Of a DNA stretch of 64,000 nucleotides, positions 24,051 to 41,338 are shown piece by piece. The notes beneath the pieces are model-generated. The model saw nothing but the letters and a program-made list of their open reading frames with translations. It was not told the DNA's origin and did not search any database. The stretch comes from an uncultured Saccharospirillum sp. Its GTDB lineage: Bacteria > Pseudomonadota > Gammaproteobacteria > Pseudomonadales > Natronospirillaceae. The position numbers and the translations under genes are program-made. Where the stretch lies: contig CBFGUW010000002.1 of NCBI GenBank assembly GCA_965652395.1, positions 57,583 to 121,582 on the forward strand, given 5' to 3'. Every line of letters begins with the position of its first letter. The stretch's first letter is position 1.

Positions 24051-25304
24051 ATGCCTTCTATCAAGCTGGGGCTGGCGCTGGTCACATTGGCTGGAGCCGT
24101 CAGTCTGAATAGTGCTGCCCAAACACTCACCATCGAAAGCTGGCGGGTGGATGATAAAGACCTGTGGGAAGATGTATTGATTCCCGCGTTCAACAAACAC
24201 AACCCCGACATTCAGGTTCGCTTTAACCCGACCTCCCCTACTGAGTACGACTCTTCCATCAACGCTCGCATGCAGGCGGGAACCGCTGGCGACCTGATCA
24301 CCTGCCGCCCCTTCGATGTGTCACTCAACCTGTACAAACAGGGAAATCTGATCCCGCTCAACGGCCTTTGGGGGCTGGACCATTATCAGGATTTCGCGAA
24401 ACGCGCCTGGAGTACGGACGACGGACAAACCACCTTCTGCATGCCCATGGCTTCGGTCATTCATGGGTTCTTTTACAACAAGGAGATATTCGAAGAACTG
24501 AATCTGAAGGTGCCGGAAACCCGCGAAGAATTCTTTAACGTTCTCGAAACCATCCAGCAGGATTCCAATTACACACCGATCGCCTTAGGCACCAACGACC
24601 AATGGGAAGCCAACCAGATCGTCTTCACCAACATTGGCGCCAATTACTGGAAAGGCGAAGACGGCCGGATGAAACTTCTGGAGGGAGACACGAAGTTCAC
24701 CGATCAGCCTTATGTGGACACCTGGGCCGAGATGGCTCGCTGGGGTGACTATATGGGACGTGGGTATGAAGCCCAAACCTATGGTGATTCGCAGAACCTG
24801 TTTGCTCTGGGCCGCGCGGCGATCTATCCGACCGGTTCCTGGGATATCTCTTATTTCAATGACCAGGCAGTGGCCGAATTCGGTGCTTTCAAACCGCCGG
24901 TGGCGAATAAAGGCGACACCTGTTACATCTCGGATCACACCGACATCGGCCTCGGCATCAATGCCGACTCCGACAATCAGGAAGCGGCCAAGGCATTTTT
25001 GAACTGGGTGGCCAGCCCTGAGTTTGCGGATTTATTCACCAACAAAGTCACCGGTTTCTTCTCCCTCTCGAACCACGAGGTGGAAGTGACCGACCCCGTC
25101 GCGGCGGAGATGATCAGTTGGCGGCAGGATTGTGAATCCACCATTCGTCTGAACGCCCAGGTGATGAACCGTGGCACGCCGAATATGGAGCAGGAACTCT
25201 GGGTCGTCAGCAGTCAGGTTTTAAACGGCACTCTGTCTCCTGAAGCGGCAGCCAAGCGCATCCAGGATGGTTTTGCTCAATGGTACGAACCTCAGTCTGA
25301 GTAA
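24051..25304 (+). CDS. ABC transporter substrate-binding protein (carbohydrate, CUT1 family)
   Basis: Signal peptide MPSIKLGLALVTLAGAVSLNSAAQ; family-1 extracellular solute-binding fold; RBS AAGAGG. Confidence 0.75.
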   Translation: MPSIKLGLALVTLAGAVSLNSAAQTLTIESWRVDDKDLWEDVLIPAFNKHNPDIQVRFNPTSPTEYDSSINARMQAGTAGDLITCRPFDVSLNLYKQGNLIPLNGLWGLDHYQDFAKRAWSTDDGQTTFCMPMASVIHGFFYNKEIFEELNLKVPETREEFFNVLETIQQDSNYTPIALGTNDQWEANQIVFTNIGANYWKGEDGRMKLLEGDTKFTDQPYVDTWAEMARWGDYMGRGYEAQTYGDSQNLFALGRAAIYPTGSWDISYFNDQAVAEFGAFKPPVANKGDTCYISDHTDIGLGINADSDNQEAAKAFLNWVASPEFADLFTNKVTGFFSLSNHEVEVTDPVAAEMISWRQDCESTIRLNAQVMNRGTPNMEQELWVVSSQVLNGTLSPEAAAKRIQDGFAQWYEPQSE

Positions 25305-25437
25305 TCGGGCTGTTGAGCCTACTGCTGAACCTGCACCTAGGCTCTTTTCAGGGGCTCATCGAGCCCCTCTTTTTCACTGTTTCGAGAAGCGCTCAGCGCC
25401 CATCGCACCAATAAGAAAAGAACCGATCGAGGCTATA

Positions 25438-26352
25438 ATGAGACGTACCTTCCCCTGGCACATCGTCGTATTCCTGGCACCTGCCGTGCTGATTTACGGA
25501 ATATTCAGTGCCTATCCTCTATTCGATACATTGCGCCTGAGCTTCTTCGCCGATACCGCCACCGGCGAACGATCATTCGCGGGCCTTGCAAACTTCGCCA
25601 CCTTGCTGGGCGATGATCTTTGGTCCGACGCTTTCTGGAATGCGATGTGGAACAACACCAAATTCTTTCTGATTCATCTGCTGGTGCAGAATCCGATCGG
25701 TCTCGCCATTGCGGCACTTATCAGTTTAAAAGGCCTGAAAGGCGCGCGGACCTACCGCACACTCATTTTTCTGCCGACGCTTTTGTCCGTGGTGATTATC
25801 GGTTTTATCTGGCAGTTGATCCTGAGCCCCCTGTGGGGTGTCTCCGAAGGATTCCTTGAGTTCTTTGGCCTGGGGTTTCTATTCGATGCCTGGCTGGGTA
25901 AAGAAAATACCGCACTCATAACACTGGCGTTGATTTCGGTCTGGCAGTTTATCGGCATACCCATGATGTTGATTTATGCCGCCATGCTGTCGATACCCGA
26001 TGATTTGATCGAAGCGGCGCACGTCGATGGTGCCTCACCCTGGAAAATTTTCTGGAAAATCCGCCTGCCGTTGATCTTTCCGACATTGGGGCTGGTCACC
26101 ATTCTCACCTTCGTCGGCAATTTCAACGCCTTCGAATTGATCTACGCCGTAAAAGGCGCCCTGGCGGGACCCAATTTTTCCACCGACATATTGGGTACCT
26201 TTTTCTATCGCACTTTCTTTGGTTATCAATCGCAGCTCGGTAGCGCCACCATGGGCGCAACCGTAGCCACCATGATGTTTCTGGTCATCCTGTTCGGTGT
26301 CATGGCGTATTTCTATTTGATTCAGCGCCGCCTGACGCGCTACCAGCTTTAA
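25438..26352 (+). CDS. ABC transporter permease (MalF/UgpA-like, CUT1)
   Basis: 6 TM, EAA loop (IEAAHVDGASPWKIFWKIRLPL). Confidence 0.8.
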   Translation: MRRTFPWHIVVFLAPAVLIYGIFSAYPLFDTLRLSFFADTATGERSFAGLANFATLLGDDLWSDAFWNAMWNNTKFFLIHLLVQNPIGLAIAALISLKGLKGARTYRTLIFLPTLLSVVIIGFIWQLILSPLWGVSEGFLEFFGLGFLFDAWLGKENTALITLALISVWQFIGIPMMLIYAAMLSIPDDLIEAAHVDGASPWKIFWKIRLPLIFPTLGLVTILTFVGNFNAFELIYAVKGALAGPNFSTDILGTFFYRTFFGYQSQLGSATMGATVATMMFLVILFGVMAYFYLIQRRLTRYQL

Positions 26353-26364
26353 GAGGTTAGGACG

Positions 26365-27207
26365 ATGAGCCCAAGCAATATTCAACAACGCAGCCGTACC
26401 GCACTGGTTCATGTCGCGCTGGCGGGGTATACCCTGATCGCCCTGTTTCCGATTGTGCTGGTAATTATCAATTCCTTTAAATCGCGCCGAGCTATTTTCA
26501 ACGACCCGCTGTCATTGCCCACACCCAGTAATTTCAGTGTAACGGGCTACGCCAAGGTGCTGGAGGAATCGAATTTTCTGCTGTTTTTCACCAACAGCCT
26601 GATCGTCACTCTTATTCCACTGATCCTGGTTTTGTTGTTTGGCGCCATGGCGGCCTGGGCGTTGAGTGAATATAAATTTCGAGGCAACCGACTCCTGGCG
26701 CTGTTCTTGGCCATGGGCATTATGGTGCCCATCCGGTTGGGTACCGTGAGTATTCTGGAAATCATGGTGGGGCTGGATCTGGTCAATACGAGGCTGGCAT
26801 TGATTCTGGTTTATACGGCTCAAGGCCTGCCGCTCGCTATTTTTATCCTGACGGAATTCGTCAACCAGGTTCCGGTCGAGCTAAAGGAAGCGGCACGGTG
26901 CGACGGCATCAGCGAATACCGGCTGTTTTTTCAGATTATTCTACCGTTGATTCGCCCCGCTGTAGCGACGGTCGCGGTATTCACCATGGTGCCGATGTGG
27001 AACGACCTTTGGTTTCCGTTGATCCTCGCGCCTGGAGAATCGACCCAGACCATTCAGTTAGGAGTGCAGCAGTTCATCGGTCAGTACGTGACGGATTGGA
27101 ACTCCGTGCTCAGCGCCCTGACCCTGGCGGTGCTCCCCGTGCTGGTGCTGTACGTCTTCTTTTCACAACAACTGATTCGGGGTTTGACCTCAGGAGCGGT
27201 CAAGTAA
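26365..27207 (+). CDS. ABC transporter permease (MalG/UgpE-like, CUT1)
   Basis: 6 TM, EAA loop (KEAARCDGISEYRLFFQIILPL). Confidence 0.8.
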   Translation: MSPSNIQQRSRTALVHVALAGYTLIALFPIVLVIINSFKSRRAIFNDPLSLPTPSNFSVTGYAKVLEESNFLLFFTNSLIVTLIPLILVLLFGAMAAWALSEYKFRGNRLLALFLAMGIMVPIRLGTVSILEIMVGLDLVNTRLALILVYTAQGLPLAIFILTEFVNQVPVELKEAARCDGISEYRLFFQIILPLIRPAVATVAVFTMVPMWNDLWFPLILAPGESTQTIQLGVQQFIGQYVTDWNSVLSALTLAVLPVLVLYVFFSQQLIRGLTSGAVK

Positions 27208-27246
27208 TTCGGCGGCCGGTTTTTTGGCCGGCCACCGTTCGGCACC

Positions 27247-28494
27247 TCAATTCGCCAGATAATGCTTCCGGGACCACATTTTCATGTCATCCAACCGGCG
27301 CAGACGCTCACCTATTTTTTCCAGCGTGGCCTGCACCGGTAACTCCCCGACCGCCATCTCTTGCAGATGAGCTTCCCAACTGCTCCAAAAACGGCGCATT
27401 TCAGGAATATCCGGCATGGTTTCGCCGGTGGCCGCCATGGCAAAGGTATGGGCGATACGCGGGTTGGCATCCAACTCCGCCATCAGTTGCTTGTTAGCGG
27501 CTGCACCCAGGGGGCGGTCGTCATTCATGGTCTTCACACCTTCGTAAATCACGACGTATTCTTCGAGAAACTGCTTGGCGATGGCCGTATTCGGGCTGTA
27601 TCCATTGATCGCTGCGGATAAAAAGCCGACGAAAGGGCGACCGTGCCCGGCCGTATCGGAAATGGCGGGAAAGCGCGCCAGTTCATAGTCGATACCGGCG
27701 GAGCTGATCTGGTTCCACGCCCAGGGGCCATTGATGATCATGGCAGTATCACCCGCCAGGAAACTTTCCATCATCAGGCTGTAGTTGTCTTCCGGCTCGA
27801 GCACCCCGGTTTCCATCAAACGATGCAGCATCGCCATCCCCTGAATGGCGCCTCGGTTATCCACCCCGACATCCGTCAATTGATACACCTGGTCAACCTT
27901 GCGGAACGAATAACCACCAGCGGAGGTCACCAGAGGCCAGGTAAAATAGGGGGTGGTGTAATCCCACACGATGGCTCGTTTGCCCTGTTCGCGCAGCTTA
28001 CGGTCAAGGGCAATCACCTCGTCCCAGGTGGCGGGTGGGGTGCTTACCAACGCTGGATTGTAGATAAGCGATATGGCTTCCATAGCCACGGGATAGCCGT
28101 AGATATTGTCGCCAACGGTCACCGCATTCCAGGCGAAATCGTGTATGGCATCACGCACTTCGGCCGAGGGCTCCACCGGTTCCAGATAACCTTCGTTTAT
28201 CCAACTGCCAAAGCGGTCGTGCGCCCAAAAAATGATATCGGGCCCTTCCGATGTAGCCGCGAATTTGGTGAAACGGGCGGCGGGGTCGTCCTCCCCTTCC
28301 CAGTCGTCCTGCGTTTGGATAATGACGGGAATACCCGTGGCCTTAGTGAACCGGTCCCCAACGGCTTGGAGCCCTTCGTAGCTTTTATCGTTGTTGATCC
28401 AGACTTCAAGGGCTTCCTGTTCAAACCCGTAGGTGGGAAATATAGTGGTCGTCAAACAGAAAGTGAGTGCGGTGAGCAGAGTGTGGATACGCAA
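27247..28494 (-). CDS. malE: maltose/maltodextrin-binding periplasmic protein
   Basis: Strong similarity along length to E. coli MalE (GPDIIFWAHDRFG, YPVAMEAISLIYN, EPYFTWPLV, GPWAW, RPFVGFLSA); start at MLRIHTLL with GGAG RBS. Confidence 0.8.
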   Translation of the reverse strand: MRIHTLLTALTFCLTTTIFPTYGFEQEALEVWINNDKSYEGLQAVGDRFTKATGIPVIIQTQDDWEGEDDPAARFTKFAATSEGPDIIFWAHDRFGSWINEGYLEPVEPSAEVRDAIHDFAWNAVTVGDNIYGYPVAMEAISLIYNPALVSTPPATWDEVIALDRKLREQGKRAIVWDYTTPYFTWPLVTSAGGYSFRKVDQVYQLTDVGVDNRGAIQGMAMLHRLMETGVLEPEDNYSLMMESFLAGDTAMIINGPWAWNQISSAGIDYELARFPAISDTAGHGRPFVGFLSAAINGYSPNTAIAKQFLEEYVVIYEGVKTMNDDRPLGAAANKQLMAELDANPRIAHTFAMAATGETMPDIPEMRRFWSSWEAHLQEMAVGELPVQATLEKIGERLRRLDDMKMWSRKHYLAN

Positions 28495-28846
28495 CATAAT
28501 CATCTCCAAGGGCCCGATCAACCTCGCTACCGAACCCGTGATCTTTGTTATTCTTATCTTCCATGCCGCCTCGAATGTGATCGAGTCGACAAATTGGAAG
28601 TGAGCGGCCTGCTATTATCCACAGTCGCCTCGCCACCATTCAGTTGAATTAGGGGTTGAACCCACCCGGTAGACCCGGGTGGAGAAAGGGTTGGATCACC
28701 CCATCTAGCATGACAAGGACAGCCATATGCACATAACACCCATGGACGGCGCCGCCTTTCCCCGCTGGTCTGTCACCTCTTACTCAAACACTCATGCCCA
28801 CGTGCCTCTAGGCCTTTTACAGCCTCTGCCTGCACATGCCAAGTTC

Positions 28847-28900
28847 TTACATGTAATACTTTCAATAAATTACATGTAATGATTGACAGCTTACATGTGA
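28847..28900 (+). promoter_or_regulatory. three copies of 10-bp perfect palindrome TTACATGTAA (third TTACATGTGA) at 21-23 bp spacing, overlapping a TTGACA -35 element
   Basis: Sites at 28847-56, 28870-79, 28891-900; TTGACA at 28883-88; immediately upstream of first gene of the PspA/flotillin cluster. Confidence 0.5.
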
Positions 28901-28917
28901 GAGATTAACTTGACGGC

Positions 28918-29559
28918 ATGAACACACGAAAAACATCCGCGGACTATCAACGGGAATACCGTAAACGGTTGCGCGCTCAGGGCCTGGTCAAGAAAGAAGT
29001 CTGGATTCACCCGGAGCACGCAAGGCTGCTCAGCCGCTTGGAAAAGCAGCTGCGCCAGCCGGGTTACGTCAAGGCTGACGCAGCCCCCGCTTTGAACCAT
29101 CAATCGGAGGTGAGCATGAGTAATACCCGAGTCTGGACCACCCACACCCTCTTCGAAGCCCTCAAAGAGGTCGAACCCTTTGCAAACGGCCAAGCCAGCC
29201 TGGAAATGGTGGAAGGCGCAGAGGCCAGCATCCACCTGACTATGCACGAATATGGCGACCTGCCTGTCTTCGTAACGGTTGCAGGCGAACAGATTATTGT
29301 GGATTGCCTGTTGTGGCCCGAATCCGATGTACGTGATCGAGCCTCCTTCAATGAAGAAGTGTTGACCACCCACAAACTCTTTCCGCTATCCACCATCAGC
29401 CTGGACTCTCTGCCGGATGGCGAGCGCTACTACACCATGTTCGGTGCGCTGAGCGCGTATTCGGTTCTGCCCAATATCGTCTTCGAAATCGAAGTGTTGG
29501 CAGACAACGTAATCAAAGCCACCGAAGCCTATGAACGCTTCCTCACCGTGGCCGCTTGA
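28918..29559 (+). CDS. DUF2170 (YjfI-like) family protein candidate, with 66-aa basic N-terminal extension (alternative internal start at 29116 with GGAGGTG RBS)
   Basis: C-terminal 148 aa resemble YjfI-type proteins that precede PspA-paralog YjfJ in E. coli (call from memory, moderate); N-terminal region is Arg/Lys-rich. Confidence 0.45.
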   Translation: MNTRKTSADYQREYRKRLRAQGLVKKEVWIHPEHARLLSRLEKQLRQPGYVKADAAPALNHQSEVSMSNTRVWTTHTLFEALKEVEPFANGQASLEMVEGAEASIHLTMHEYGDLPVFVTVAGEQIIVDCLLWPESDVRDRASFNEEVLTTHKLFPLSTISLDSLPDGERYYTMFGALSAYSVLPNIVFEIEVLADNVIKATEAYERFLTVAA

Positions 29560-29574
29560 AGCCGGAGACTGAAA

Positions 29575-30267
29575 ATGACTATCTGGAGCAAACTGGTAAC
29601 CGCACTTAGGGGCAATGTAAACGAACTGGGCGAGGCGGTGGTCGACAGTCAGGCCATGGTGATACTCGACCAGGAAATTCGCGATGCGGACAACGAACTG
29701 CGGCAGGCCAAATCGTCTCTGGCCGAAATTATGGCCAAGCACAAAGTGGCTCGCGACCATATCGAAACGCTGAACAGGAAAGCGGCCGAATACGAAGGTT
29801 ATGCCTTAAAGGCACTGGAAAAAAATGAAGAGACTCTGGCAGCGGAAGTCGCCGAGAAAATCGCCCAATTGGAAAACGAGACCCGGAACCAGCAGGTTGT
29901 TGTGGATAATTACGCCACCAGCGTGGCGGATTTGCGGAAAGCGGTGCAGCAGGCCGAAGGCAACCTGAAGCGATTGCGGCAGCAGGCCGATACGGTCAGA
30001 GCGACGGAGTCCGTCCAAAAAGCCCAGGCCGCCGTGGCCAGCCGCCACAGCGGCAGCAACGCCAAGCTGCGAACCGCCATGGATTCACTGGAACGCATCA
30101 AACAGAAGCAGGCGGAACGCGGGGCGCGCATGGAGGCGGCTCAAGAACTTGAACGGGAAACCCATGGCGACGAGCTGGCCACCAAGCTGAAAGCCGCCGG
30201 TATTACAGGGGAAAACCACAACGCCGCTGCTGTGCTTGAGCGATTGAAGAAACAACAACAAAAATAA
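29575..30267 (+). CDS. PspA/IM30 family protein (YjfJ-like, ESCRT-III-like superfamily)
   Basis: N-terminal MTIWSKLVTALRGNVNELGEAVVDSQAMVILDQEIRDADNEL closely parallels PspA N-terminus; long coiled coil. Confidence 0.8.
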   Translation: MTIWSKLVTALRGNVNELGEAVVDSQAMVILDQEIRDADNELRQAKSSLAEIMAKHKVARDHIETLNRKAAEYEGYALKALEKNEETLAAEVAEKIAQLENETRNQQVVVDNYATSVADLRKAVQQAEGNLKRLRQQADTVRATESVQKAQAAVASRHSGSNAKLRTAMDSLERIKQKQAERGARMEAAQELERETHGDELATKLKAAGITGENHNAAAVLERLKKQQQK

Positions 30268-30330
30268 CCTGGATTACCAGACAAGGCGGCGCACTCGTCA
30301 CCTTGTCTCATTACCTTAAGGGATCATTCC

Positions 30331-30969
30331 ATGGAAGTATTCATATCCCTCATTACCGCCTACCCGGTGGTACTTTACACTTTCGGGCTGGTGCTGGTTG
30401 TCCTCTACTGGCTTGTTGCCAGCATGGGGCTGCTTGATATAGACGCGCTGGACCTGCCGGACCCCGAATCCGATATGGATCTGGATGTCGGAGCCGAAGG
30501 TTTGGCCGGATTGCTGTTGAAGGTCGGCTTGAACGGCGTGCCGTTAACCATCGTTCTCAGCCTACTGATTCTACTCAGCTGGATATTCAGCTATTTCGCC
30601 AGCTTACTGCTTATGCCCATCGTACCGGGAGCCATCCTTTGGTTTTTCGCAGGGACGGCGATCCTGATCGGCGCGTGGGTGGTGGCCGTTCCCATCACGG
30701 CGATCCTGATCAAACCGCTTAAACCTCTTTTTGCAAAAACCAAGGGCCATTCACGGACATCCGTACTCGGCCAAGTGGCCATCATCCGAACCTCAAGGGT
30801 GGACGAAACCTTTGGCGAGGCGGACTTCAACGACGGCGGCGCGGGCTTGGTGCTGAAAGTGAGGGCGGAAACGCCAAACGAGTTCAAACGAGGTGATCGG
30901 GCTGTCCTGCTCGAGTACCTGGAAACCGACAACGCTTACCGCGTTATCCCCGAAAGGGACTTTTATTAA
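30331..30969 (+). CDS. NfeD-like inner membrane protein (YqiJ/DUF1449-like: polytopic N-terminal region + C-terminal OB-fold)
   Basis: Multiple TM helices followed by soluble beta-rich C-terminus; positioned directly upstream of flotillin as in yqiJ-yqiK. Confidence 0.6.
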   Translation: MEVFISLITAYPVVLYTFGLVLVVLYWLVASMGLLDIDALDLPDPESDMDLDVGAEGLAGLLLKVGLNGVPLTIVLSLLILLSWIFSYFASLLLMPIVPGAILWFFAGTAILIGAWVVAVPITAILIKPLKPLFAKTKGHSRTSVLGQVAIIRTSRVDETFGEADFNDGGAGLVLKVRAETPNEFKRGDRAVLLEYLETDNAYRVIPERDFY

Positions 30970-30992
30970 TCGCTAAAACGGAGACTTAATCT

Positions 30993-33008
30993 ATGGATTT
31001 GTCGCTTCTCATGCCTGTGCTCGTTGGCGCCGGGGTGTTCTTCCTGGTTTTGATGGGCATACTCGCCCTGTTCAAAGCCTTCTACGTTAAAGTTCCCCAG
31101 GGTTGGGCCTTGATTGTCAACGACATGTCGTCGACGCCCAAGGTCTATTTCACCGGCGGCATGGTGTTGCCGGTCATCCACAAAAAAGAATACATGCGGG
31201 TCTCGCTCATCTCTATGGAGATAGACCGCCGCGCGAAAGACGGCCTGATCTGCGCGGACAACATGCGCGCGGACATCAATGTCGCTTTTTACCTCCGTGT
31301 CAATGAAACCGCCGAAGACGTACTGAAAGTCGCCAAAAGCATCGGCGTTGACCGGGCATCCGATAAAGACGCCGTCAACGAACTGTTCGCCGCCAAGTTC
31401 TCCGAAGCACTGAAAACCGTTGGTAAACAGATTGATTTCGTCAAACTGTTTGAAGACCGTCAGTTCTTCCGCGAGAAGATCATCGAAACCATCGGCAACG
31501 ATCTGAACGGCTATGTGCTGGAAGACGTGGCCATCGATTACCTCGAGCAAACTCCTCGAGAGTCGTTGGACCCGAACAATATTCTTGATGCCGAAGGCAT
31601 TCGCAAGATCACCGAGCTGACCGCCAAGCAAAACGTCATCACCAATGAGCTCGAACGCAACCGTGAGTTGGCCATCACCAAGAAGAACGTCGAAACCCGC
31701 GAGGCGATGCTTGAGCTTGAACGCCAGGAAGCCGATGCCACGGCGCGTCAGCAGCGTGAAGTCGAGTCCATCAAGGCACGCGAGGAAGCCGAAACGGCAC
31801 GGGTTCGCGAAGAAGAGCGCCTGCGCTCGGAAACAGCCCGTATCGAAACCGAGAAGCAGCTGCAAATTCAGGAAGAAAACCGCCTGCGCGAAATCGAAGT
31901 GGCTCAACAGAATCGGGCACGGGCTGTGGCCATCGAAGAGGAAAAAGTCACGCGTGCACGCGACCTGGAGATTGTCGCCCGCGAGAAAGAAGTGACACTG
32001 CAACAGATCGACAAAGAGAAGTCGGTCGAGATCGAACGCAAGGACATCGCCAACGTTATCCGCGAACGAGTGGCCGTAGAGAAGACCGTCGCCGAGGAAG
32101 AGGAGCGCATCAAGCAGGTGCGTGAAGTCTCCGAAGCGGAACGCCGCAAGCAGGTGCACTTACTGGCGGCCCAAGCCGAGGCGGAAGAAGCCAAGGTGAA
32201 GGAAGTGACGGCGGCCGAAGCATCGGAAATCAAAGCCAAACACCGCGCCCAGGAAATCAACACCATCGCCCAGGCGGAGTTGGAAGCGGCGGCGAAGCAG
32301 GCCGAGTCGAAGAAGAAACTGGCCGAGGGCATCGAAGCCGAACGCGCGGCTCCAGGGTTGGCCGAGGCGAAGGTGAAGCAAGTGACTGCGGACGCCTTGG
32401 AAAAAGAAGGCCTCGCGAAAGCACGCATCGAAGAGGAATCCGGTCTTGCCCAGGCAAGAGTGCTCGAAGCGCAGGCGGTCGCCAAAGAAAAAGACGGATT
32501 GGCGGAAGCGAAAGTACTGGAAGAGAAACTCCACGCCGAGGCTCAGGGCGAAGAACAAATGGGTCTGGCCCAGGCGAAGGCGGAAAAAGAGAAGGGCTTG
32601 GCCGCAGCCGAAGTCACACGCGAACGCTTCAAGGCGGAAGCCGATGGCTTGGTGGAGAAATTCAATGCCATGAACGCCATGACCGAAGTGGCGCGCGAAC
32701 ACGAAGAGTTCCGCATGAAGCTGGAGAAGGACTACGAACAGAACATGGCGTCCATCGAAGCGAACAAAGAGATCGCGGAAGCTCAGGCCCGCATGCTGGC
32801 CGAGGCGCTGCGGGAAGCGAACATCGATATCGTGGGTGGCCAGGGCGACTATTTCAACAATTTCGCCAAATCGCTTGGGCTGGGTAAAGCCGTGGAAGGG
32901 TTTTCCGCCAAAAGCCCTACCGTGCAGGCGCTGCTGAACAAATTCCTGGGGGGCAACGGTCTGGACGGGGCCATCGCCAAGCCCGAGAAGGACACACTGC
33001 CTAACTAA
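30993..33008 (+). CDS. flotillin (SPFH/band 7 family, YqiK-like) with long Glu/Ala/Lys-rich coiled-coil repeats
   Basis: N-terminal TM + SPFH domain (VKVPQGWALIVN...), periodic GLA(E/Q)AK(V/A) repeats. Confidence 0.85.
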   Translation: MDLSLLMPVLVGAGVFFLVLMGILALFKAFYVKVPQGWALIVNDMSSTPKVYFTGGMVLPVIHKKEYMRVSLISMEIDRRAKDGLICADNMRADINVAFYLRVNETAEDVLKVAKSIGVDRASDKDAVNELFAAKFSEALKTVGKQIDFVKLFEDRQFFREKIIETIGNDLNGYVLEDVAIDYLEQTPRESLDPNNILDAEGIRKITELTAKQNVITNELERNRELAITKKNVETREAMLELERQEADATARQQREVESIKAREEAETARVREEERLRSETARIETEKQLQIQEENRLREIEVAQQNRARAVAIEEEKVTRARDLEIVAREKEVTLQQIDKEKSVEIERKDIANVIRERVAVEKTVAEEEERIKQVREVSEAERRKQVHLLAAQAEAEEAKVKEVTAAEASEIKAKHRAQEINTIAQAELEAAAKQAESKKKLAEGIEAERAAPGLAEAKVKQVTADALEKEGLAKARIEEESGLAQARVLEAQAVAKEKDGLAEAKVLEEKLHAEAQGEEQMGLAQAKAEKEKGLAAAEVTRERFKAEADGLVEKFNAMNAMTEVAREHEEFRMKLEKDYEQNMASIEANKEIAEAQARMLAEALREANIDIVGGQGDYFNNFAKSLGLGKAVEGFSAKSPTVQALLNKFLGGNGLDGAIAKPEKDTLPN

Positions 33009-33026: not shown

Positions 33027-36000
33027 ATGACCACTGACCATCAGGATGTCAGCCAGCAGGAACAGGATAGCGCTATCGACAAGGCCGTCTCCGAAGGTGG
33101 CGCTTACGATGTTATTCGCAAGCGGCTGCTGGACCAGGGCCGTCAACTGGCCACCGAGGTCGAGCATCTCAATAATGCACGACTGGAGGAGTTTGGAAAC
33201 ACCGGTCAGGAAGTGATCGGTCGCATGAGAGTGCGCACCGAGAACAACTGCGTTGCCCGCGACATTGTGAGAGTCGGTGAAAACCTGCTGTTCGGCTACA
33301 ACGTTTACATCGGGCTGAAGCAGACCACCCGGATCGAAGACGTGTTCGCCCTGTTTCGACTGGTCGACCAGGGCGGCCAGTTCGAAATGGAAGCCGTTTC
33401 TCTGAAGCCCTCCTTCCTAAGCGATCCGGGTTTTATTAAAGACTTCGAAGAACTCTATACCTATTACAAACAAACCAAGCTGATTCAGTTGCTGGTGATC
33501 AACGGCAAGCTCCTGGCGGCGTTCCAGATTGGCGAGCGCGCCTCCGACATTCGTGTTTTCCGTTGGTCGGTGTCAGCGGATGGTCAGGAGGTCCGCTATA
33601 TCGATAACAGAGGCGAGCGGGATATCGCATTGCCTCCGGCTCATGATTTCGAGTGGACCGCCACCACCCGAGACGACATCGTTCATGGCAGCCAGCCTCA
33701 CGTAAATATTCTGGATACCTTGTTCGTCGAAACCCTTCAGGGTGAGCTGACCATCAAGGTTGAAAACAACACGGAAGACGGGCTTGGTCTGTATCGGGAA
33801 CCGGTGGAAGAAGCCAACCAATCGCTGACCGACGCCGAGTTCCACTACGCGCGTCTGGGCGAATTGATCTTACTGAAAGTACTGCCCTACCGGGAGGACG
33901 CACCCCGCCACTTTGTATTCAACAGCCTGACACAAAGCGTTCACCGTATCGACGCACTGGGAGAAGCTTGCCAGCAATTGCCGGAAGACCACGGCATTAT
34001 ATTCCCGGGCGGTTATTACCTGACGAACGGTGAAATGAAACAGTTTGAAAGTAACAGCCAAGGGCTTAAATTTCGCCGGGTCATCAAGTCTCCCAATGGA
34101 GAGGATGTACTCTACGTTTTTTATGAACCCGAAGAAGGCCGGGTAGAACTGTTTCCCTACAATCTGATCAACAAGGCGCTGAGCAACCCGATCGTCGGTC
34201 ATGGTTATGCCCTGGGTGAGGACGGCAAACTGGTAATCTTCACGGCCGAAGGGGAACCCACCCGGGTCCACCCCATGCAGGTGTGGCAGACGCCGTTCTT
34301 TACGGAGGAGTTCGCCAGTGCTCAGCCGCCCAGTCAAAGTTTTTATGGCCGCATCGGCAACCCGGAGCTGGTGCGAGGTATTTCGGAAATCTATTCCATC
34401 GTCCGAACGATCAATCAACAATCGGCCTCCAGCCGCCTCTACAGTGACCTGGCGCAACATTGCCGCAAGGTGTTCGATGCCTATCACTGGCTCGACACCC
34501 AAGAGTTACAGGCCGCCGCTACACTCATCAAAGAAATCGCCAACACGGCCGAGCTGGTACTGGACGAGTTTGAAAAAGTCCAAACCATTCGGGAGCAGGC
34601 GGAAACCGCCCTTCGCGACGCCAGAGCCGACCAGGCCAAATTGATTGGCCAACTGCACATCGATAGCTGGCAAAGGCCGGATCAATACGTCGATGCACTG
34701 GCTCAGCTCAGGCGTCAACGCGGCCGCCTGCTGACCATCCGCGAACTTCGCTACATGGATGTCGCCGAGGTCGATGCCCTTGAAAACGAACTGGTCACAG
34801 CCGATGATCGGGTCGCTTCCGCAACGGCCACCTTTCTGGCCGGTGAAGAAGCGCTGTCACCCTACCTCACCCGACTGAATGAAATACAGGAAGCCATCGA
34901 AGCTGCCGACACTATTGCCGAACTGAAACCGGAACTCGCCACACTGGACCAGCTTTCTGAAGGACTCGACCTGCTTTCCGAGCTCGCCGCCGGGCTAAAG
35001 GTTGAGGATGCCACCCAACATACCCGCATCATCGATTCCATAGGAGAGGTTTACGCCCTGGTAAACCAACGAAAGGCTCAGGCACGCAATAAACAACAGA
35101 ATCTGGGTGGCGCCGAAGCACGCGCTCAGTTTGCCGCTCAATTCAAGTTATTCAGCCAGTCCATCACCAACGCACTCAGCCTGGCACGCACACCCGAACA
35201 AAGTGATGAACAGCTATCCCGACTGCTGGTGCAATTGGAGGAACTGGAAGGGCAGTTTTCGGAGCACGATGAATTTCTGGGCGATATCCTGACCAAACGT
35301 GACGAAATTCATGAGTCCTTCGAGGCCCACCGCCAGCGGTTAATGGATGAACGTCATGCCCGGGCACAATCGCTATTCGATGCCGCCAGCCGCATTCTGG
35401 ACAACTTGCAGCGCCGCGCTAACAAATTCGACAAGGCCGAAGAACTGAACAGCTACTTCGCGGCCGACGCCATGGTGCTCAAGCTCACCGACCTGGCCAG
35501 GAATTTGAGAGTGCTGGACGATGTCGTCAAAGCCGACGATATCGACGCGCGTCTTAAGTCTATTAAAGAGCAGGCGATACGTGGTCTGCGTGACAAGACG
35601 GACATTTTCGAAGAAGGTGGCAAGGTCATTAAACTCGGCCCCCGCCACAAGTTCAGTGTCAATACACAAGAACCAGACCTGACCTTGCTGCCACGCGAAG
35701 ACGATTTGTACCTGCATTTAACCGGCACCGATTATTACGAAGCGCTGAATCACTCTGAGTTGAACGCCTGCCGACCCTTCTGGCATCAGACTCTTGAGTC
35801 CGAAAACGAACAGGTCTATCGCGCCGAATACCTGGCGTCCCGCATCATGGAAGCGGCCGATCGAAACCTGGAAGGGCTCGATATCGAACAGCTGGAGTAT
35901 GCCGCCAGTGACTCCAAGGCACTGCTTGAACTGGTTCGACGTTACAGCGCTCCACGCTACAAGGAAGGTTATGAAAAGGGCATCCACGACGCCGATGCGG

Positions 36001-38282
36001 CCGCCATTCTCGCACGATTAATGCCCGTCAGGGCTCAAGCCGGTTTACTTCGCGTCGCACCCAAAGCCCGGTCTCTCGCCATGCTGTTCTGGGCCGCCGG
36101 TCAGAAAGAGCAACCCCAACGGGATTGGCCACAACGCGCCCGCGCCGCCACCCACATGGCCAGACTGTTTGCTTCGCGCGGCGCCCACGATTTACTGGTG
36201 GCCGAGGCATCCAGACTCCTTACTCAATTCGTCGAGGCGCACCAACTCCCGATGACGGAGCTTGAGTGTCAACGGGCGGCGGACTATCTGATTTCAGAGT
36301 TATCGGAGGAAAGACCCTCCTTTGGCATCAGTAAATACGCTCAGAGGCTGGCGGATGAACTGCGACAAAGGATGGATCAAAACAGCTGGCGCGATTACCA
36401 AAACGCTCTAGCCCAATTGAAAGGCCAGCCGGGTCCGCGCTGGGCGCTGACCGAAGCCTGGTTATTGGCCCTGGTGCGCACCGAAGAACTTGCCGGGCTC
36501 AGAGCCTACATACCCGAGGCGGTTGCACTCGTTAACACCGAGGAACGAATCGACCTGCGCCCGTCGGAAGTCGATCTGTCTTTCGAGGTGACGGGTCTGC
36601 TCGGCCAACACAGTCGAATCAAAAACCAATGCCTGTCGCTCCGGCTTGATGACTTCATCGAACGCCTGGATCACTATCGGGAAGTCACACTGCCCGGCTA
36701 CAGGGCCTATCTTGATTTACGTGGCAAGGTGCTGCATGAAGCAAGAGAGTCCATGCGGTTGGATGAATTCAAGCCTCGGCCTCTCAGTTCTTTCGTCCGC
36801 AACAAGCTGATCAACGAAGCTTACCTGCCCATTATCGGTGACAATCTCGCCAAACAAATGGGCACCGTGGGAGACACCAAACGCACGGACCTGATGGGCC
36901 TGCTTATGATGATCTCACCGCCCGGTTACGGTAAAACCACCCTGATGGAATACGTCGCCAACCGGCTCGGGTTGATTTTCATGAAGATCAATTGCCCCTC
37001 GCTTGGTCACGATGTTCTCTCACTCGATCCGGAACAAGCACCGAATGCCACCGCACGTCAGGAGCTGAACAAACTCAACCTGGCGTTGGAAATGGGTAAC
37101 AACGTCATGTTGTATCTTGACGATATTCAACATACTCATCCAGAGTTCCTGCAAAAATTCATCTCCCTGTGCGACGGCACCCGACGCATCGAAGGCGTGT
37201 GGAAAGGCCGAACGCGGACCTACGACATGCGCGGCAAGAAATTCTGCGTGGTCATGGCCGGAAACCCCTACACCGAATCCGGCGAGGCGTTCAAAGTGCC
37301 CGACATGCTGGCCAACCGGGCGGACATTTACAACTTGGGTGATATTCTGGGCGGCATGGAAGAGCAGTTCGCACTGTCGTTTATCGAAAACTGCCTTACC
37401 TCGAACCCGGTACTGGCGCCACTCGCCACGCGCGAAATGTCGGATTTTTACAGGCTTGCCGAACTGGCCGCCGGTAATAATGTGAGCACCAACGACCTGT
37501 CGCACGACTATTCCGCCGCTGAAGTTGCGGAAATCACCGGCGTATTGAAAAAACTCTTCGTCATTCAGAATGTCGTGCTTAAAGTAAACCAGCAATACAT
37601 TCACAGCGCCGCCCAGGCGGACAAATACCGAACCGAACCGGGCTTCCGTTTGCAGGGTTCCTACCGGAACATGAACAAGATGGCCGAAAAGGTCTCGGGC
37701 ATTATGAACGACGCCGAGCTCAACCGCTTAATTGACGACCACTACCTCGGCGAAGCCCAGCTGCTGACCTCCGGTGCCGAAGAAAACCTGCTTAAACTGC
37801 GTGAAATCAGGGGCATTCTCACGGAACAGGAGACCCAGCGTTGGCAGCAAATAAAAGCCGACTTTCTGCGCAACAAAGCCATGGGTGGTGAAGACGCCGA
37901 CACCGGCAGCCGGGTCGTCGCCCAGTTGGCCGACATCGCCGCGGCATTGCAACAACCGGAAACAAAGGGAGAGCCCAATTGGCAAGCCCCGTTGGCGGCT
38001 CTTGACCAGGGGTTGAAACAAATAGCCTCGGCGCTCACCAAGGCCCAATATCAGGTGGAAGTCATCAACCAGCCGGTGCCAGGAATGGACAAAGTCCTGA
38101 ATACGCTGGCCGATACCGTGGAGAATTCCCTGATGCCGTTGGTTCACGCCATGGAGGGAAAACTCGGTATCGATCTGCGTACACACGACCGTCTGGTCTC
38201 CATCAGTCAGGAAATAAAAGAGCTTAAGCAGGAAGTGATCCGCACCACATCGGTTAAACATCGGCCGGTGGCGGATAGCTGA
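33027..38282 (+). CDS. 1751-aa multidomain protein: beta-rich N-terminal region, long alpha-helical/coiled-coil middle, C-terminal MoxR/AAA_5-type AAA+ ATPase
   Basis: Single uninterrupted ORF; Walker A SPPGYGKTT (~36921-36941), Walker B VMLYLDD (~37111-37125), sensor-1 VMAGNPY, LANRADIY; 18-nt gap after flotillin stop. Confidence 0.7.
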   Translation: MTTDHQDVSQQEQDSAIDKAVSEGGAYDVIRKRLLDQGRQLATEVEHLNNARLEEFGNTGQEVIGRMRVRTENNCVARDIVRVGENLLFGYNVYIGLKQTTRIEDVFALFRLVDQGGQFEMEAVSLKPSFLSDPGFIKDFEELYTYYKQTKLIQLLVINGKLLAAFQIGERASDIRVFRWSVSADGQEVRYIDNRGERDIALPPAHDFEWTATTRDDIVHGSQPHVNILDTLFVETLQGELTIKVENNTEDGLGLYREPVEEANQSLTDAEFHYARLGELILLKVLPYREDAPRHFVFNSLTQSVHRIDALGEACQQLPEDHGIIFPGGYYLTNGEMKQFESNSQGLKFRRVIKSPNGEDVLYVFYEPEEGRVELFPYNLINKALSNPIVGHGYALGEDGKLVIFTAEGEPTRVHPMQVWQTPFFTEEFASAQPPSQSFYGRIGNPELVRGISEIYSIVRTINQQSASSRLYSDLAQHCRKVFDAYHWLDTQELQAAATLIKEIANTAELVLDEFEKVQTIREQAETALRDARADQAKLIGQLHIDSWQRPDQYVDALAQLRRQRGRLLTIRELRYMDVAEVDALENELVTADDRVASATATFLAGEEALSPYLTRLNEIQEAIEAADTIAELKPELATLDQLSEGLDLLSELAAGLKVEDATQHTRIIDSIGEVYALVNQRKAQARNKQQNLGGAEARAQFAAQFKLFSQSITNALSLARTPEQSDEQLSRLLVQLEELEGQFSEHDEFLGDILTKRDEIHESFEAHRQRLMDERHARAQSLFDAASRILDNLQRRANKFDKAEELNSYFAADAMVLKLTDLARNLRVLDDVVKADDIDARLKSIKEQAIRGLRDKTDIFEEGGKVIKLGPRHKFSVNTQEPDLTLLPREDDLYLHLTGTDYYEALNHSELNACRPFWHQTLESENEQVYRAEYLASRIMEAADRNLEGLDIEQLEYAASDSKALLELVRRYSAPRYKEGYEKGIHDADAAAILARLMPVRAQAGLLRVAPKARSLAMLFWAAGQKEQPQRDWPQRARAATHMARLFASRGAHDLLVAEASRLLTQFVEAHQLPMTELECQRAADYLISELSEERPSFGISKYAQRLADELRQRMDQNSWRDYQNALAQLKGQPGPRWALTEAWLLALVRTEELAGLRAYIPEAVALVNTEERIDLRPSEVDLSFEVTGLLGQHSRIKNQCLSLRLDDFIERLDHYREVTLPGYRAYLDLRGKVLHEARESMRLDEFKPRPLSSFVRNKLINEAYLPIIGDNLAKQMGTVGDTKRTDLMGLLMMISPPGYGKTTLMEYVANRLGLIFMKINCPSLGHDVLSLDPEQAPNATARQELNKLNLALEMGNNVMLYLDDIQHTHPEFLQKFISLCDGTRRIEGVWKGRTRTYDMRGKKFCVVMAGNPYTESGEAFKVPDMLANRADIYNLGDILGGMEEQFALSFIENCLTSNPVLAPLATREMSDFYRLAELAAGNNVSTNDLSHDYSAAEVAEITGVLKKLFVIQNVVLKVNQQYIHSAAQADKYRTEPGFRLQGSYRNMNKMAEKVSGIMNDAELNRLIDDHYLGEAQLLTSGAEENLLKLREIRGILTEQETQRWQQIKADFLRNKAMGGEDADTGSRVVAQLADIAAALQQPETKGEPNWQAPLAALDQGLKQIASALTKAQYQVEVINQPVPGMDKVLNTLADTVENSLMPLVHAMEGKLGIDLRTHDRLVSISQEIKELKQEVIRTTSVKHRPVADS

Positions 38283-38824
38283 TGGCGAGATTACGCTCCG
38301 CTTTTATCGCCGTCGCGCTCATTTGGGTGGTTTTCTTGGCCAATGCATTCCTGCCAACAATTGAACTGCGCACTTTCGGCGTACTGCCCCGCGACCCAGA
38401 CCGCCTCTGGGCGGTTCTGACCAGCCCCTTCCTGCACGGTAACTGGCAACATCTGATCGGCAACAGCATTCCGCTGTTCATTTTCAGCTGGCTGGTGCTG
38501 CGCCGGGGGCAGCGACGCTATCTCACGGCCAGTGCCTTCATCATCATTGTGGGGGGGTTGATCCTCTGGCTGATCGGTCGCCCGGCACTTCATATTGGGG
38601 CCAGTGGCTGGGTATTCGGGCTCTGGGGGCTGATCATCGCCGATGGCTGGTATGAGCGCAGCCTGGCAGCGGTGCTGACCAGCCTGGCGGTGATCCTGCT
38701 GTACGGCGGAATGCTCTGGGGGCTGCTGCCCCAGGCCACAGTGAGCTTCGAAGCCCACCTGGGAGGCTTGGTGGCCGGTGTGATGTATTCGGCACTGAGT
38801 CATACCCGGAAACAGAAAAGATGA
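38282..38824 (+). CDS. rhomboid family intramembrane serine protease
   Basis: FLHGNWQHLIGN (TM2 motif), GASGWVFG (GxSG catalytic Ser), HLGGLVAG (catalytic His); ATG overlaps stop of upstream ATPase (ATGA... coupling). Confidence 0.75.
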   Translation: MARLRSAFIAVALIWVVFLANAFLPTIELRTFGVLPRDPDRLWAVLTSPFLHGNWQHLIGNSIPLFIFSWLVLRRGQRRYLTASAFIIIVGGLILWLIGRPALHIGASGWVFGLWGLIIADGWYERSLAAVLTSLAVILLYGGMLWGLLPQATVSFEAHLGGLVAGVMYSALSHTRKQKR

Positions 38825-38897: not shown

Positions 38898-40127
38898 GTG
38901 CTCATGGAGCCCTTTGACATTGCCATTGTCGGCGGCGGCATGGTGGGTCTGACCCTGGCATCCGCACTTCGCCCCGCACTGGACGCCGGTGCCCGGCTGG
39001 TTTTGGTCGACCCCGCGCCTCAGCCGACCGATTCCGTCCCACAATCGCCCAGTTTCGATGACCGGGCCACCGCCCTTTCCTCCCTCACCTGTACCGCGCT
39101 GGACCGCCTCGGCCTGTGGTCCCGCCTGGAACCACACGCCAGCGCCATCAACTGGATTGAAGTGAGCGATCGCGGTCATGCCGGTTACCAGGTGATGGAC
39201 GCCAAGGAATTTCCGGGCCATCCCTTTGGCTCTGTCGTGGCCAACCGGAACCTGGGTGTGGTGCTCTGGCAGGGTTGTCAGGATCTGCCTTCGGTGGAGT
39301 GGCGTTTCGATACCAGTGTCGAACGCCTTGAACCCGACAATGAATACCAACAACTCCAGCTAAGCTCCGGCGAAACCCTTCGCGCCCGTCAGGTGTTTCT
39401 CTGCGATGGCGGTCGTTCGCCGCTGGCTCGCCGCCTGGGCATTCAATATCGCCAGCAGGATTATCAGGCCAGCGCGCGCGTGGCCTCCGTTCGCACCGAG
39501 GAACACCACGGCGGCCGGGCGTTCGAACGCTTCACTGAGGACGGCCCGATTGCACTGCTGCCCTTCGGCGAGTATTCAGCTCTGGTCTGGACTGTTCCGG
39601 ATCGCCTGCTTTCCCGCATACGGGCTATGAGCAAGACTGAACAGCTTGGCTGGCTCAACGAGCGTTTTGGCCAACGTCTGGGGCGCATCACTGACATCAG
39701 CGACCCCTCAAGCTACCCCCTTATTCTGCGCCAATGCCGGGAACCGGTTCGCCACCGGTTGATGGTGCTGGGAAACTCCGCAGCCACGCTCCACCCGGTC
39801 GCGGGGCAAGGCTTCAATCTCGCCATGCGTTCCGTGCTGAGAACCGCCGAGCGTATTAACGCCACCCTGCTCAATGCCCGGGACCCTGGTGATTATCGGG
39901 GCCTGCGCGACCTCGCCGCAGAGATTGATCGCGACCAACGGCTGACCGCCACCCTGTCGGATGGCCTGGTGCGTACCTTTGCCAATCCACAGCCCTGGTT
40001 CCAACTGGGGCGCAACCTCGGTCTGAACATGCTCGACCGTCACCCTTTACTCAGCAAAGCCTTCACCCTGACCAGCATGGGGGTACTGCAAGGAGCCCCA
40101 CTACCCAAAGGAGATGCCGTTCTATGA
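38898..40127 (+). CDS. ubiH: FAD-dependent ubiquinone biosynthesis hydroxylase, UbiH/UbiF/UbiI(VisC)/Coq6 family
   Basis: [17 protein letters not shown]-binding GxGxxG; family architecture; E. coli-like ubiH-ubiI tandem. Confidence 0.6.
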   Translation: MLMEPFDIAIVGGGMVGLTLASALRPALDAGARLVLVDPAPQPTDSVPQSPSFDDRATALSSLTCTALDRLGLWSRLEPHASAINWIEVSDRGHAGYQVMDAKEFPGHPFGSVVANRNLGVVLWQGCQDLPSVEWRFDTSVERLEPDNEYQQLQLSSGETLRARQVFLCDGGRSPLARRLGIQYRQQDYQASARVASVRTEEHHGGRAFERFTEDGPIALLPFGEYSALVWTVPDRLLSRIRAMSKTEQLGWLNERFGQRLGRITDISDPSSYPLILRQCREPVRHRLMVLGNSAATLHPVAGQGFNLAMRSVLRTAERINATLLNARDPGDYRGLRDLAAEIDRDQRLTATLSDGLVRTFANPQPWFQLGRNLGLNMLDRHPLLSKAFTLTSMGVLQGAPLPKGDAVL

Positions 40128-41338
40128 CCACACACCACTCGCACGATGCCATTATTGTTGGCGGCGGCATGGTAGGCCTGGCACTGGCGGTGGCCGCCGC
40201 TCGCGAAAATCTGTCCGTTCTGGTGATCGAGCAACACTATCCGGAAATCGAAGCGCCTAATCCGGGCAAATTCGCGCCCCGGGTAAGCGCGATCAGCCAT
40301 CACAGCCAACAATGGCTCGCCCGCCAGGGTGCCTGGCAGCGACTGCCCAAAGGGCGGGTGTGCAGCTACGGGCACATGAGCGTTTGGGACGGGCTCGGCA
40401 GCGGCCACATAGACTTCGACGCCGCCGAGGTGCAGGCCGAAAGCCTCGGGCACATCGTGGAAAATCACTGGGTGACCCAGGCACTGTGGGAAACCGCCGA
40501 AGAGCACCCCACCCTGCAACTGGTGGCTGGACACAAAGTGGCACACTGGGAGGAATCCGAATCCGGTGTCGAGGTGACGCTGGATGACGGTCAGGCGTTC
40601 TCAGCGCCGGTGTTGGCCGCCTGTGATGGCAAATTCTCTAAAATTCGGGAGGAAGCAGGCTTTGATACCCGGGAGTGGGCCTATGGCCACACCGCCCTCG
40701 TCACGTCGATCCGGCACAGTCATTCCCATGCCTTCACCGCCCGCCAGGTGTTTCTGGATTCAGGACCGCTCGCCTTTTTGCCACTCACCGACGAAACCGG
40801 CACCAGCGAATGGTCTTCTATTGTCTGGAGTGCTGAAACCGAGCGGGCGGAAGCCTTGTTTCGACTCGATGAGGCCGAATTCCTGACTGAATTGAACCGT
40901 TTCAGCGAGGGTTGCCTCGGGGAAATCACCGCCACCGATCCGCGCTTCCGCTTTCCACTGACTCAAATGCATGCCAAGCGCTATTGGCGTGGCCGGGTTG
41001 TCCTTCTGGGGGATGCGGCCCACGCCATCCACCCTCTTGCAGGCCAGGGTGTGAACCTGGGTTTTTTGGATGCGGAAGCCCTAAGCCGGGAATGGGTAGA
41101 GGCCAAAAACCAAGGCCGCTCGACCGGCGATGCCTGGACGCTGAGACGTTTCCAACGAAAGCGTCAGGCCCACAACCTGGCCGCAATGGCGACGATGGAA
41201 GGTTTCAAGCGTTTGTTTGGCACCGACCACCCGGCACCGGTGCTGTTGAGAAACCATGGCCTCGCCTTGTTCGATCGCTTCACGTTGGCCAAACGCCCTT
41301 TGATTCACGCTGCCATGGGTGAATTCACCGGGGGTTAA
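40124..41338 (+). CDS. ubiI: FAD-dependent ubiquinone biosynthesis hydroxylase, UbiI(VisC)-like
   Basis: [14 protein letters not shown] GxGxxG; start overlaps upstream stop. Confidence 0.55.

Follow-up and report, generated by a model that had tools for sequence, protein, structure and literature searches.

A rhomboid intramembrane protease gene at the 3' end of a bac-type PspA/flotillin/ATPase operon in an uncultured Saccharospirillum

Why should the gene for a rhomboid intramembrane serine protease share a nucleotide with the gene for a giant ATPase that follows PspA- and flotillin-related genes? This arrangement occurs on the forward strand of contig CBFGUW010000002.1 (assembly GCA_965652395.1) of an uncultured Saccharospirillum sp., within the 64,000-nucleotide stretch analyzed here (hereafter, the window), where the rhomboid gene occupies positions 38282-38824. 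A first-pass annotation, made from the letters of the window, had proposed that the two genes are translationally coupled, that the rhomboid is co-expressed stoichiometrically with the ATPase and flotillin, and that it performs a regulated proteolytic step inside their module. To our knowledge, the physiological roles of bacterial rhomboids are largely unknown. We favor, with somewhat better than even confidence, the reading that the gene encodes an active-type minimal rhomboid which stands at the end of a bac-type operon as a facultative member, is expressed by termination-reinitiation, and performs a cleavage of the membrane-protein quality-control type. The operon type is already known; with a rhomboid as sixth gene it is a new version, rather than a new kind of system.

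The rhomboid and its junction with the ATPase gene

The features on which the identification depends are as follows.

38282-38824, forward strand: rhomboid intramembrane serine protease gene; 180 residues, a minimal core of six transmembrane segments without an extra domain
38280-38284, forward strand: TGATG junction; the first base of the rhomboid ATG (38282-38284) is also the last base of the ATPase stop codon TGA (38280-38282)
38450-38452 and 38462-38464, forward strand: codons of H57 and N61, the HxxxN motif of transmembrane segment 2 (oxyanion region)
38603-38605, forward strand: codon of catalytic S108 in transmembrane segment 4, within the GxSG motif G106-A-S108-G109
38756-38758, forward strand: codon of catalytic H159 in transmembrane segment 6

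The reading frame is uninterrupted over its 180 codons and, because a TAG in the same frame (38276-38278) stands two codons before the ATG, the ATG at 38282 is the earliest start available to it; 15 orthologues from other loci can be aligned with the N-terminus so defined, first transmembrane helix included. The protein matches Pfam Rhomboid (PF01694) across residues 40-173 at 94.3 bits, which places it above the family cut-off of 22.6, and G106-A-S108-G109, H159, H57 and N61 are invariant both in 51 database homologues (36-93% identity) and in 16 orthologues derived from the loci described below. An AlphaFold2 prediction built on the database homologues reached a predicted local distance difference test (pLDDT) of 93.9 and a predicted template modeling (pTM) score of 0.90. 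When this model was compared with the PDB using Foldseek, the top 34 matches were all GlpG (TM score ~0.66-0.72 over ~178 columns), the best being full-length matches to Escherichia coli GlpG at ~0.70-0.72. As modeled, the product has the six-transmembrane rhomboid core fold and, with its catalytic residues intact, it is probably an active-type protease; the first-pass identification of a rhomboid carrying GxSG and a histidine is borne out.

With the GlpG proteins of E. coli and Haemophilus influenzae the protein shares the six-transmembrane core, the GxSG motif and Ser-His dyad completed in transmembrane segment 6, and the HxxxN motif of segment 2. It is however only 17-22% identical to GlpG, its sole sequence-profile match to a solved structure has an E value of 0.003, it lacks the cytoplasmic N-terminal domain of GlpG, and its genomic context differs; by our reading of the alignment, it also carries an invariant P36-R37 in the L1 region where GlpG has W-R. 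The sole NCBIfam match, to the rhombosortase model TIGR03902, was rejected at 36.3 bits against an equivalog cut-off of 84. That match is what would recommend the protein as a rhombosortase acting on GlyGly-CTERM sorting signals; given the shortfall in score, and with no GlyGly-CTERM candidate noticed among the operon products, we consider this reading barely credible.

The junction itself reads ...GATAGC TGATG GCG, and the overlap is therefore one nucleotide; the overlap first proposed between the rhomboid start and the end of the 1751-residue reading frame is real, but it is not the four-nucleotide ATGA that had been described. TGATG recurs at the orthologous junction of locus L091, and TAATG in Providencia. 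Among 48 ATPase-rhomboid junctions drawn from different taxa, the genes overlap in 23 (by four nucleotides, as ATGA or GTGA, in 17; by one in five; by 11 in one), are separated by 0-10 nucleotides in 12 and by 11-70 nucleotides in another 12, and lie 82 nucleotides apart, the largest gap, in one. Overlap or a gap of at most 10 nucleotides is the rule (35/48), and ATGA/GTGA is the most frequent junction type; the check proposed with the first-pass annotation, conservation of a four-nucleotide overlap, is borne out in its broader sense, with an overlap of exactly four nucleotides in 17 of the 48. One such overlap is nothing unusual for a bacterial operon, as the ubiH/ubiF pair described below illustrates, whereas conservation over 48 junctions exceeds chance. 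Judging from these sequences, the junctions would rarely leave space for separate expression signals of the rhomboid.

In the window, no sigma-70-like promoter was found in the final ~280 nucleotides of the ATPase gene, no terminator-like site was found at the junction, and the Shine-Dalgarno-like element ahead of the rhomboid is weak (GGCGGA). As the intergenic gaps of the operon do not exceed 94 nucleotides, the last two genes overlap by one nucleotide, and their junction bears neither terminator- nor promoter-like sites, we infer that the rhomboid is co-transcribed with bacA-bacE. The shared base, the weak GGCGGA and the want of an upstream promoter-like site together make termination-reinitiation the most likely route of expression, so that translation of the rhomboid is probably coupled to termination on the ATPase gene: ribosomes ending on the latter would reinitiate at the rhomboid start. 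With overlapping or nearly abutting junctions found across families, the coupling first suggested is plausible. Such coupling would link rhomboid synthesis to induction of the operon without implying equimolar output relative to the ATPase, and the claim of stoichiometric co-expression does not follow from a start/stop overlap.

An operon of known type with a variable tail

The genes upstream of the rhomboid are listed in order.

28918-29559, forward strand: bacA, DUF2170/CesT-Tir-like protein of the BacA/YjfI family (Pfam DUF2170, 173.8 bits; NCBIfam NF050185, 'biofilm formation regulator BacA', 317 bits, over the 300-bit cut-off)
29575-30267, forward strand: bacB, PspA/IM30 (bacterial ESCRT-III) family protein (Pfam PspA_IM30, 169.7 bits)
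30331-30969, forward strand: bacC, multi-pass membrane protein of 212 residues, YqiJ/short-NfeD-like by synteny and tblastn identity
30993-33008, forward strand: bacD, flotillin-like protein of 671 residues with an N-terminal transmembrane segment, an SPFH (Band 7) domain and a long coiled coil
33027-38282, forward strand: bacE, 1751-residue protein with DUF3686, DUF7902 and an AAA+ ATPase domain (Pfam DUF3686 666, DUF7902 88 and AAA 28.9 bits)

DUF2170 followed by PspA, a YqiJ/NfeD-like protein together with an SPFH flotillin, and a DUF3686 AAA+ ATPase in fifth place reproduce the first five genes of the bac operon of Pseudomonas aeruginosa. The name bac denotes a 'biofilm-associated cluster', and in that species the operon has been connected with virulence and the formation of biofilms. 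There, bacABCDEF forms a six-gene operon by reverse transcription PCR, and mutation of bacA raises the levels of its products jointly (PMC10948618). An operon class described by Ravi et al. (2024) from comparative genomics combines CesT/Tir-like DUF2170 and PspA with a TM-band7-flotillin, YqiJ/YuaF and a novel AAA+ ATPase, to which a phospholipase D (PLD)-family gene is sometimes added (PMC11237479). The window shares with both the same first five families in the same order and a small sixth gene that abuts the ATPase gene; the difference lies in that sixth gene, which belongs to the PLD family in P. paraeruginosa (and by inference in P. aeruginosa) and is a rhomboid here.

The gene that corresponds to bacC by position in the bac operons of Pseudomonas encodes a product 45-54% identical to BacC (tblastn), and these counterparts are described as NfeD/YqiJ-like (PMC13086221, PMC11237479); a Pfam search with BacC gave no match. 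BacD is ~70% identical to its P. paraeruginosa counterpart, and its residues 25-256 alone match Band_7 (PF01145) at 29 bits, over the cut-off of 23.6, which legitimizes the parallel with SPFH-protease partnerships that the first-pass annotation had drawn. Full-length BacD gave no Pfam match, even at E = 1; its long coiled coil, rich in Glu, Ala and Lys, appears to mask the Band_7 match, and automated annotation could therefore overlook the SPFH identity. Sequence searches of solved structures found no relative of BacD or of BacE.

To gauge how often the rhomboid accompanies the ATPase, one genome per species was scanned with an alignment of the C-terminal third of the ATPase. Among these species representatives the scan identified at least 581 relatives, of which the best 80 loci were fetched (loci are numbered throughout with the prefix L) and 76 had enough downstream sequence to be judged. 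A rhomboid lies directly 3' of the ATPase gene in 23 of the 76, including several Pseudomonas, Phytopseudomonas, Cellvibrionaceae, an Oleiphilaceae bacterium, Arenicella, Litoribacillus and Entomomonas; in one further locus (L037) it stands divergently, 5' of bacA. Look-ups of rhomboid homologues added Providencia rettgeri, in the order yqiJ-flotillin-ATPase-rhomboid, and Sinobacterium, in which all six genes are present. All six are likewise present, with an ATGA junction, on a metagenomic Saccharospirillum-like contig, and in Aliikangiella the rhomboid leads the gene cluster. The linkage of ATPase and rhomboid thus recurs in several gammaproteobacterial families, which upholds the earlier placing of the rhomboid in the same module as the ATPase and flotillin genes. 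The rhomboid is a facultative member of bac-type operons, and the absence from orthologous loci that would have told against the proposal holds in part, with a rhomboid in 23/76.

Other genes take the same position. The gene abutting the ATPase encodes a PLDc_2 protein in P. paraeruginosa, L043 and others (103 bits); in 13 Xanthomonadales a TelA-like coiled-coil protein, mostly with a four-nucleotide overlap; in L050 and L053 (Candidatus Thiodiazotropha and a Sedimenticolaceae genome) a homologue of the intramembrane metalloprotease family Peptidase_M50B (154 bits), which L039 also carries, 5' of yqiJ; and elsewhere a Zn-ribbon protein, or nothing recognizable. The tail of L067 holds an SRPBCC protein. 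Compound tails are frequent (rhomboid-PLD, rhomboid-PLD-Zn-ribbon and rhomboid-Zn-ribbon-PLD), so that PLD-family genes often stand beside the rhomboid rather than substitute for it; no PLD homologue was found within the 64-kb window, where the tail consists of the rhomboid only. Several membrane-acting genes are interchangeable in this tail, the rhomboid among them, and the occurrence of an unrelated intramembrane protease family in the slot of the rhomboid, while indirect, fits a proteolytic function there better than any other indirect evidence.

Presence of the rhomboid tracks the PspA/DUF2170 pair rather than the ATPase alone. Among loci with both ends visible, it occurs in 24 of the 41 ATPase operons that have bacA and pspA and in two of the 30 that lack them (Fisher p = 4.6e-6; 2x2 table 24/2/17/28). 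A metagenome scan with the rhomboid alignment, in which the 80 best relatives were sorted by context, placed 19 directly 3' of the ATPase gene, with two more on truncated contigs that have PLD downstream, and 18 directly 3' of pspA in operons without flotillin and ATPase. The latter follow the order DUF2170-PspA-rhomboid-Ion_trans_2-DUF2491-DUF350-DUF1190-GSP_synth, the arrangement of the P. fluorescens group. These yjf-type PspA operons, of the DUF2170-PspA-rhomboid-yjfKLMC kind, carry a sister clade of the rhomboid (~44% identity) directly after DUF2170-PspA; unlike the operon in the window, they lack flotillin, YqiJ and the DUF3686 ATPase, and a gap of ~64 nucleotides between pspA and rhomboid takes the place of the overlap with the ATPase gene. 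Approximately 41 of the 80 lie in heterogeneous contexts, and clustering of the neighbors of these 41 yielded no third recurrent partner, only small taxon-level groups. A neighbor-joining tree of 116 rhomboids resolved a PspA-linked clade, a clade found exclusively in other contexts, and a large clade which holds the window protein; of the ~65 leaves in this last clade, 47 are linked to the ATPase, with orphans interspersed. The unrelated contexts imply that the rhomboid family is not exclusive to bac- or PspA-type operons. The dispersal that would have weakened the first proposal is thus partly real, comprising a sister clade in PspA operons, orphans and unrelated contexts.

Two orphans in close relatives are informative about the direction of change. 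In Saccharospirillum salsuginis (L005, locus positions 9783-10000) the rhomboid is 72% identical to that of the window and the bacA-bacE equivalent is missing; the locus is syntenic with window positions 23002-28430 and with an intergenic block at 28614-28693, then passes straight into the rhomboid, ahead of which, in contrast to the weak GGCGGA of the window, lies a strong Shine-Dalgarno sequence, AAGAGGGGAA, either acquired or retained. In GCA_018402545.1 (L088) the rhomboid is 76% identical and the neighborhood differs; ~115 nucleotides from the 3' end of the ATPase gene persist, with the TGATG junction among them (locus positions 9890-10003), and an IS110-family transposase gene lies 3-4 kb upstream. 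Both orphans retain all catalytic residues. The two relatives thus deleted bacA-E independently and kept the rhomboid. The linked state is therefore ancestral in this lineage and the protease was kept at least twice after loss of the rest of the module, which speaks against a function with a strict requirement for the ATPase or flotillin.

These data also bear on whether the rhomboid might be an independent housekeeping gene and an incidental neighbor of the ATPase gene. Orphan copies in close relatives, and the unrelated contexts of about half of the top metagenomic relatives, would suit such a gene. The same adjacency is however found, with an equal or tighter junction, in many genera whose flanking genes differ, a conservation that contradicts incidental placement, and both orphans in the closest relatives are themselves deletion derivatives of the linked state. 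We therefore judge an incidental association to be very unlikely.

Downstream of the rhomboid, beginning 73 nucleotides 3' of it, lie two UbiH/UbiF-family hydroxylase genes (38898-41338, ubiH first), which overlap each other by four nucleotides (40124-40127). Synteny of the pair is confined to the closest relative (L090); in other relatives the pair is not tied to the module.

Candidate substrates and partners of the rhomboid

What, then, might the rhomboid cleave? A role in membrane-protein quality control appears most likely, by analogy with bacterial rhomboids for which such a role is documented (PMC7232013, PMC7231995). Under this reading, as a membrane under stress is mended or reshaped by PspA, flotillin and the ATPase, the rhomboid would cleave destabilized or orphaned transmembrane segments, or a substrate encoded outside the operon. 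It is preferred because BacC and BacD show no rhomboid-specific feature, because no one operon protein is common to all rhomboid-linked architectures, and because the orphans outlast the module. The closest functional parallels are Shigella GlpG/Rhom7 and Bacillus YqgP with FtsH, rhomboids that license the degradation of orphan or unwanted membrane proteins, one of them together with an AAA+ partner (PMC7232013, PMC7231995); their genes, however, lie outside PspA/flotillin operons, and the function of the present protein is proposed by analogy with them.

Within the operon itself, the most obvious candidate substrates are the membrane anchors of BacD (SPFH) or BacC (NfeD-like), which the rhomboid might cleave to assemble, release or dismantle a flotillin scaffold. 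AarA, which trims the N-terminus of TatA, would provide a precedent for cleavage of this kind. BacD, whose SPFH identity is confirmed, would be a suitable target, having a short N-terminal tail, a single transmembrane segment rich in small and helix-breaking residues (MDLSLLMPVLVGAGVFF...), and an N-out/C-in topology as favored by rhomboids; furthermore, the rhomboid is tightly linked to loci with flotillin and BacC genes, an M50B homologue takes the same slot in L050 and L053, and an archaeal stomatin is cut by an NfeD protease (PMC13086221). Against this, when loci with and without a rhomboid were compared over the first 45-70 residues of BacD and of BacC, no extension or motif specific to the former was found; two thirds of the ATPase/flotillin loci lack any rhomboid, the sister rhomboid clade resides in operons without an SPFH or NfeD gene, and orphan rhomboids remain after deletion of the module. 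In-module cleavage of BacD or BacC is consequently unlikely, if by no means negligible, and these comparisons do not support the regulated proteolysis inside the module that was originally proposed: the N-termini are indistinguishable with or without the protease, and no sign of an in-module substrate was seen.

A comparison with known SPFH-protease pairs is reasonable as an analogy of function. PARL is itself a rhomboid, and the SLP2-PARL-YME1L complex is mitochondrial. In that complex, as in HflK/C-FtsH and stomatin-NfeD (STOPP), an SPFH scaffold is tied to a membrane protease, whereas the tie observed here is gene linkage alone; moreover, the present rhomboid is optional and its relatives also occur in PspA operons without an SPFH gene. 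Bacterial and archaeal cases of SPFH-protease association have been reviewed (PMC13086221).

The constant position of the rhomboid raises another possibility, a rhomboid-AAA+ extraction unit in which the rhomboid recognizes or clips membrane proteins and passes them to BacE for extraction. All 48 downstream junctions place the rhomboid directly 3' of the ATPase gene, the exceptions being L007 (at the operon front) and L037 (divergent, upstream), start/stop overlap is frequent, and a bacterial rhomboid acting with an AAA+ protease has been described (PMC7231995). This position may nevertheless merely reflect the appending of accessory genes at the 3' end, as PLD and Zn-ribbon genes follow the ATPase gene likewise. 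The sister clade operon lacks an AAA+ partner, presence of the rhomboid correlates with PspA/DUF2170, and BacE matches AAA, AAA_5 and AAA_22 weakly (Pfam) and has no solved relative by sequence, which leaves an unfoldase role unsupported. The systems to which such a unit can be likened are Derlin/RHBDL4 with p97, and YqgP as an adaptor for FtsH; as an account of the present operon we think it improbable. We also give only an outside chance to a broader version, in which the rhomboid would clip transmembrane proteins trapped in damaged patches or in a flotillin cage and BacE would extract them, as parts of an ESCRT-III/flotillin/AAA+ repair machine. If true, this machine would be a prokaryotic counterpart of rhomboid/Derlin-p97 dislocation, and M50B would represent an alternative intramembrane-protease module in the slot of the rhomboid.

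Several points weigh against the quality-control reading and the termination-reinitiation that accompanies it. The quality-control role draws on analogy and on the lack of an in-operon substrate signature, the latter being weak negative evidence; the p value of the PspA association ignores phylogeny; and ~28% of the leaves of the ATPase-linked clade, together with the whole of a neighboring clade, lie in unrelated contexts. With regard to expression, an RNA hairpin is predicted at 38230-38310 (dG -28.9 kcal/mol, z = -2.1), in which tail codons of the ATPase gene pair with the rhomboid AUG and with the weak Shine-Dalgarno element ahead of it. The hairpin is retained in the 91%-identical L091; it is however not kept in eight other orthologous junctions, which form unrelated folds (z -2.3 to +1.3). 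As the hairpin is not conserved, coupling may be independent of RNA structure.

Upstream DNA and significance

A further difference from the P. aeruginosa operon may concern its control.

28847-28900, strand not assigned: three palindromic TTACATGTAA boxes, at 28847, 28870 and 28891, which overlap a TTGACA -35-like hexamer

The boxes lie just 5' of bacA, spaced by 23 and 21 nucleotides, and the third reads TTACATGTGA. They are the only three matches within the window, against 0.5 expected, and they are kept 5' of bacA in L089. Together with TTGACA they probably constitute the operator/promoter region of the operon, and they look like a repressor operator for it. A sigma-54 (-24/-12) promoter has been proposed 5' of P. 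aeruginosa bacA (PMC10948618), for which no counterpart was seen here: a scan with the consensus only (TGGCAC-N5-TTGCW) found no match at three or fewer mismatches across 28083-31420, where the three palindromic boxes are present instead. BacA bears a basic N-terminal extension (residues 1-70, window 28918-29130; ...YQREYRKRLRAQGLVKKEVWIHPEHARLLSRLEKQLR...) preceding its DUF2170 domain, and the NCBIfam BacA model takes in this ~70-residue extension. It may be a DNA-binding module, an idea suggested by the upstream palindromes and by the reported negative control of the bac operon by BacA (PMC10948618). Further upstream, an intergenic block of ~110 nucleotides (28576-28693; ...ATTATCCACAG...TCAGTTGAATT...TAGACCCGGGTGGAGAAAGGGTTG), which adjoins a divergent solute-binding-protein gene, is kept in L089 and in S. 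salsuginis L005; an Rfam search of the block gave a chance-level match only.

The rhomboid seems to have escaped attention in this setting. Neither PMC10948618 nor PMC11237479 mentions a rhomboid, the searchable literature yielded no paper in which a rhomboid is connected with PspA, with flotillin or with the bac operon, and a literature search for 'DUF3686' found no papers; a 2025 review of the rhomboid superfamily makes no mention of operons, PspA or flotillin (PMC12615303). The present findings refine the picture of the bac operon, whose enzymatic tail is variable and may hold a rhomboid or a PLD-family, M50B-like, Zn-ribbon or TelA-like gene, and this variability suggests that the membrane-acting activities drawn in by the core machine differ from lineage to lineage. 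For the rhomboids themselves, the repeated occurrence of one clade in PspA/flotillin/AAA+ stress operons points to conditions and partners with which the hunt for substrates might begin.

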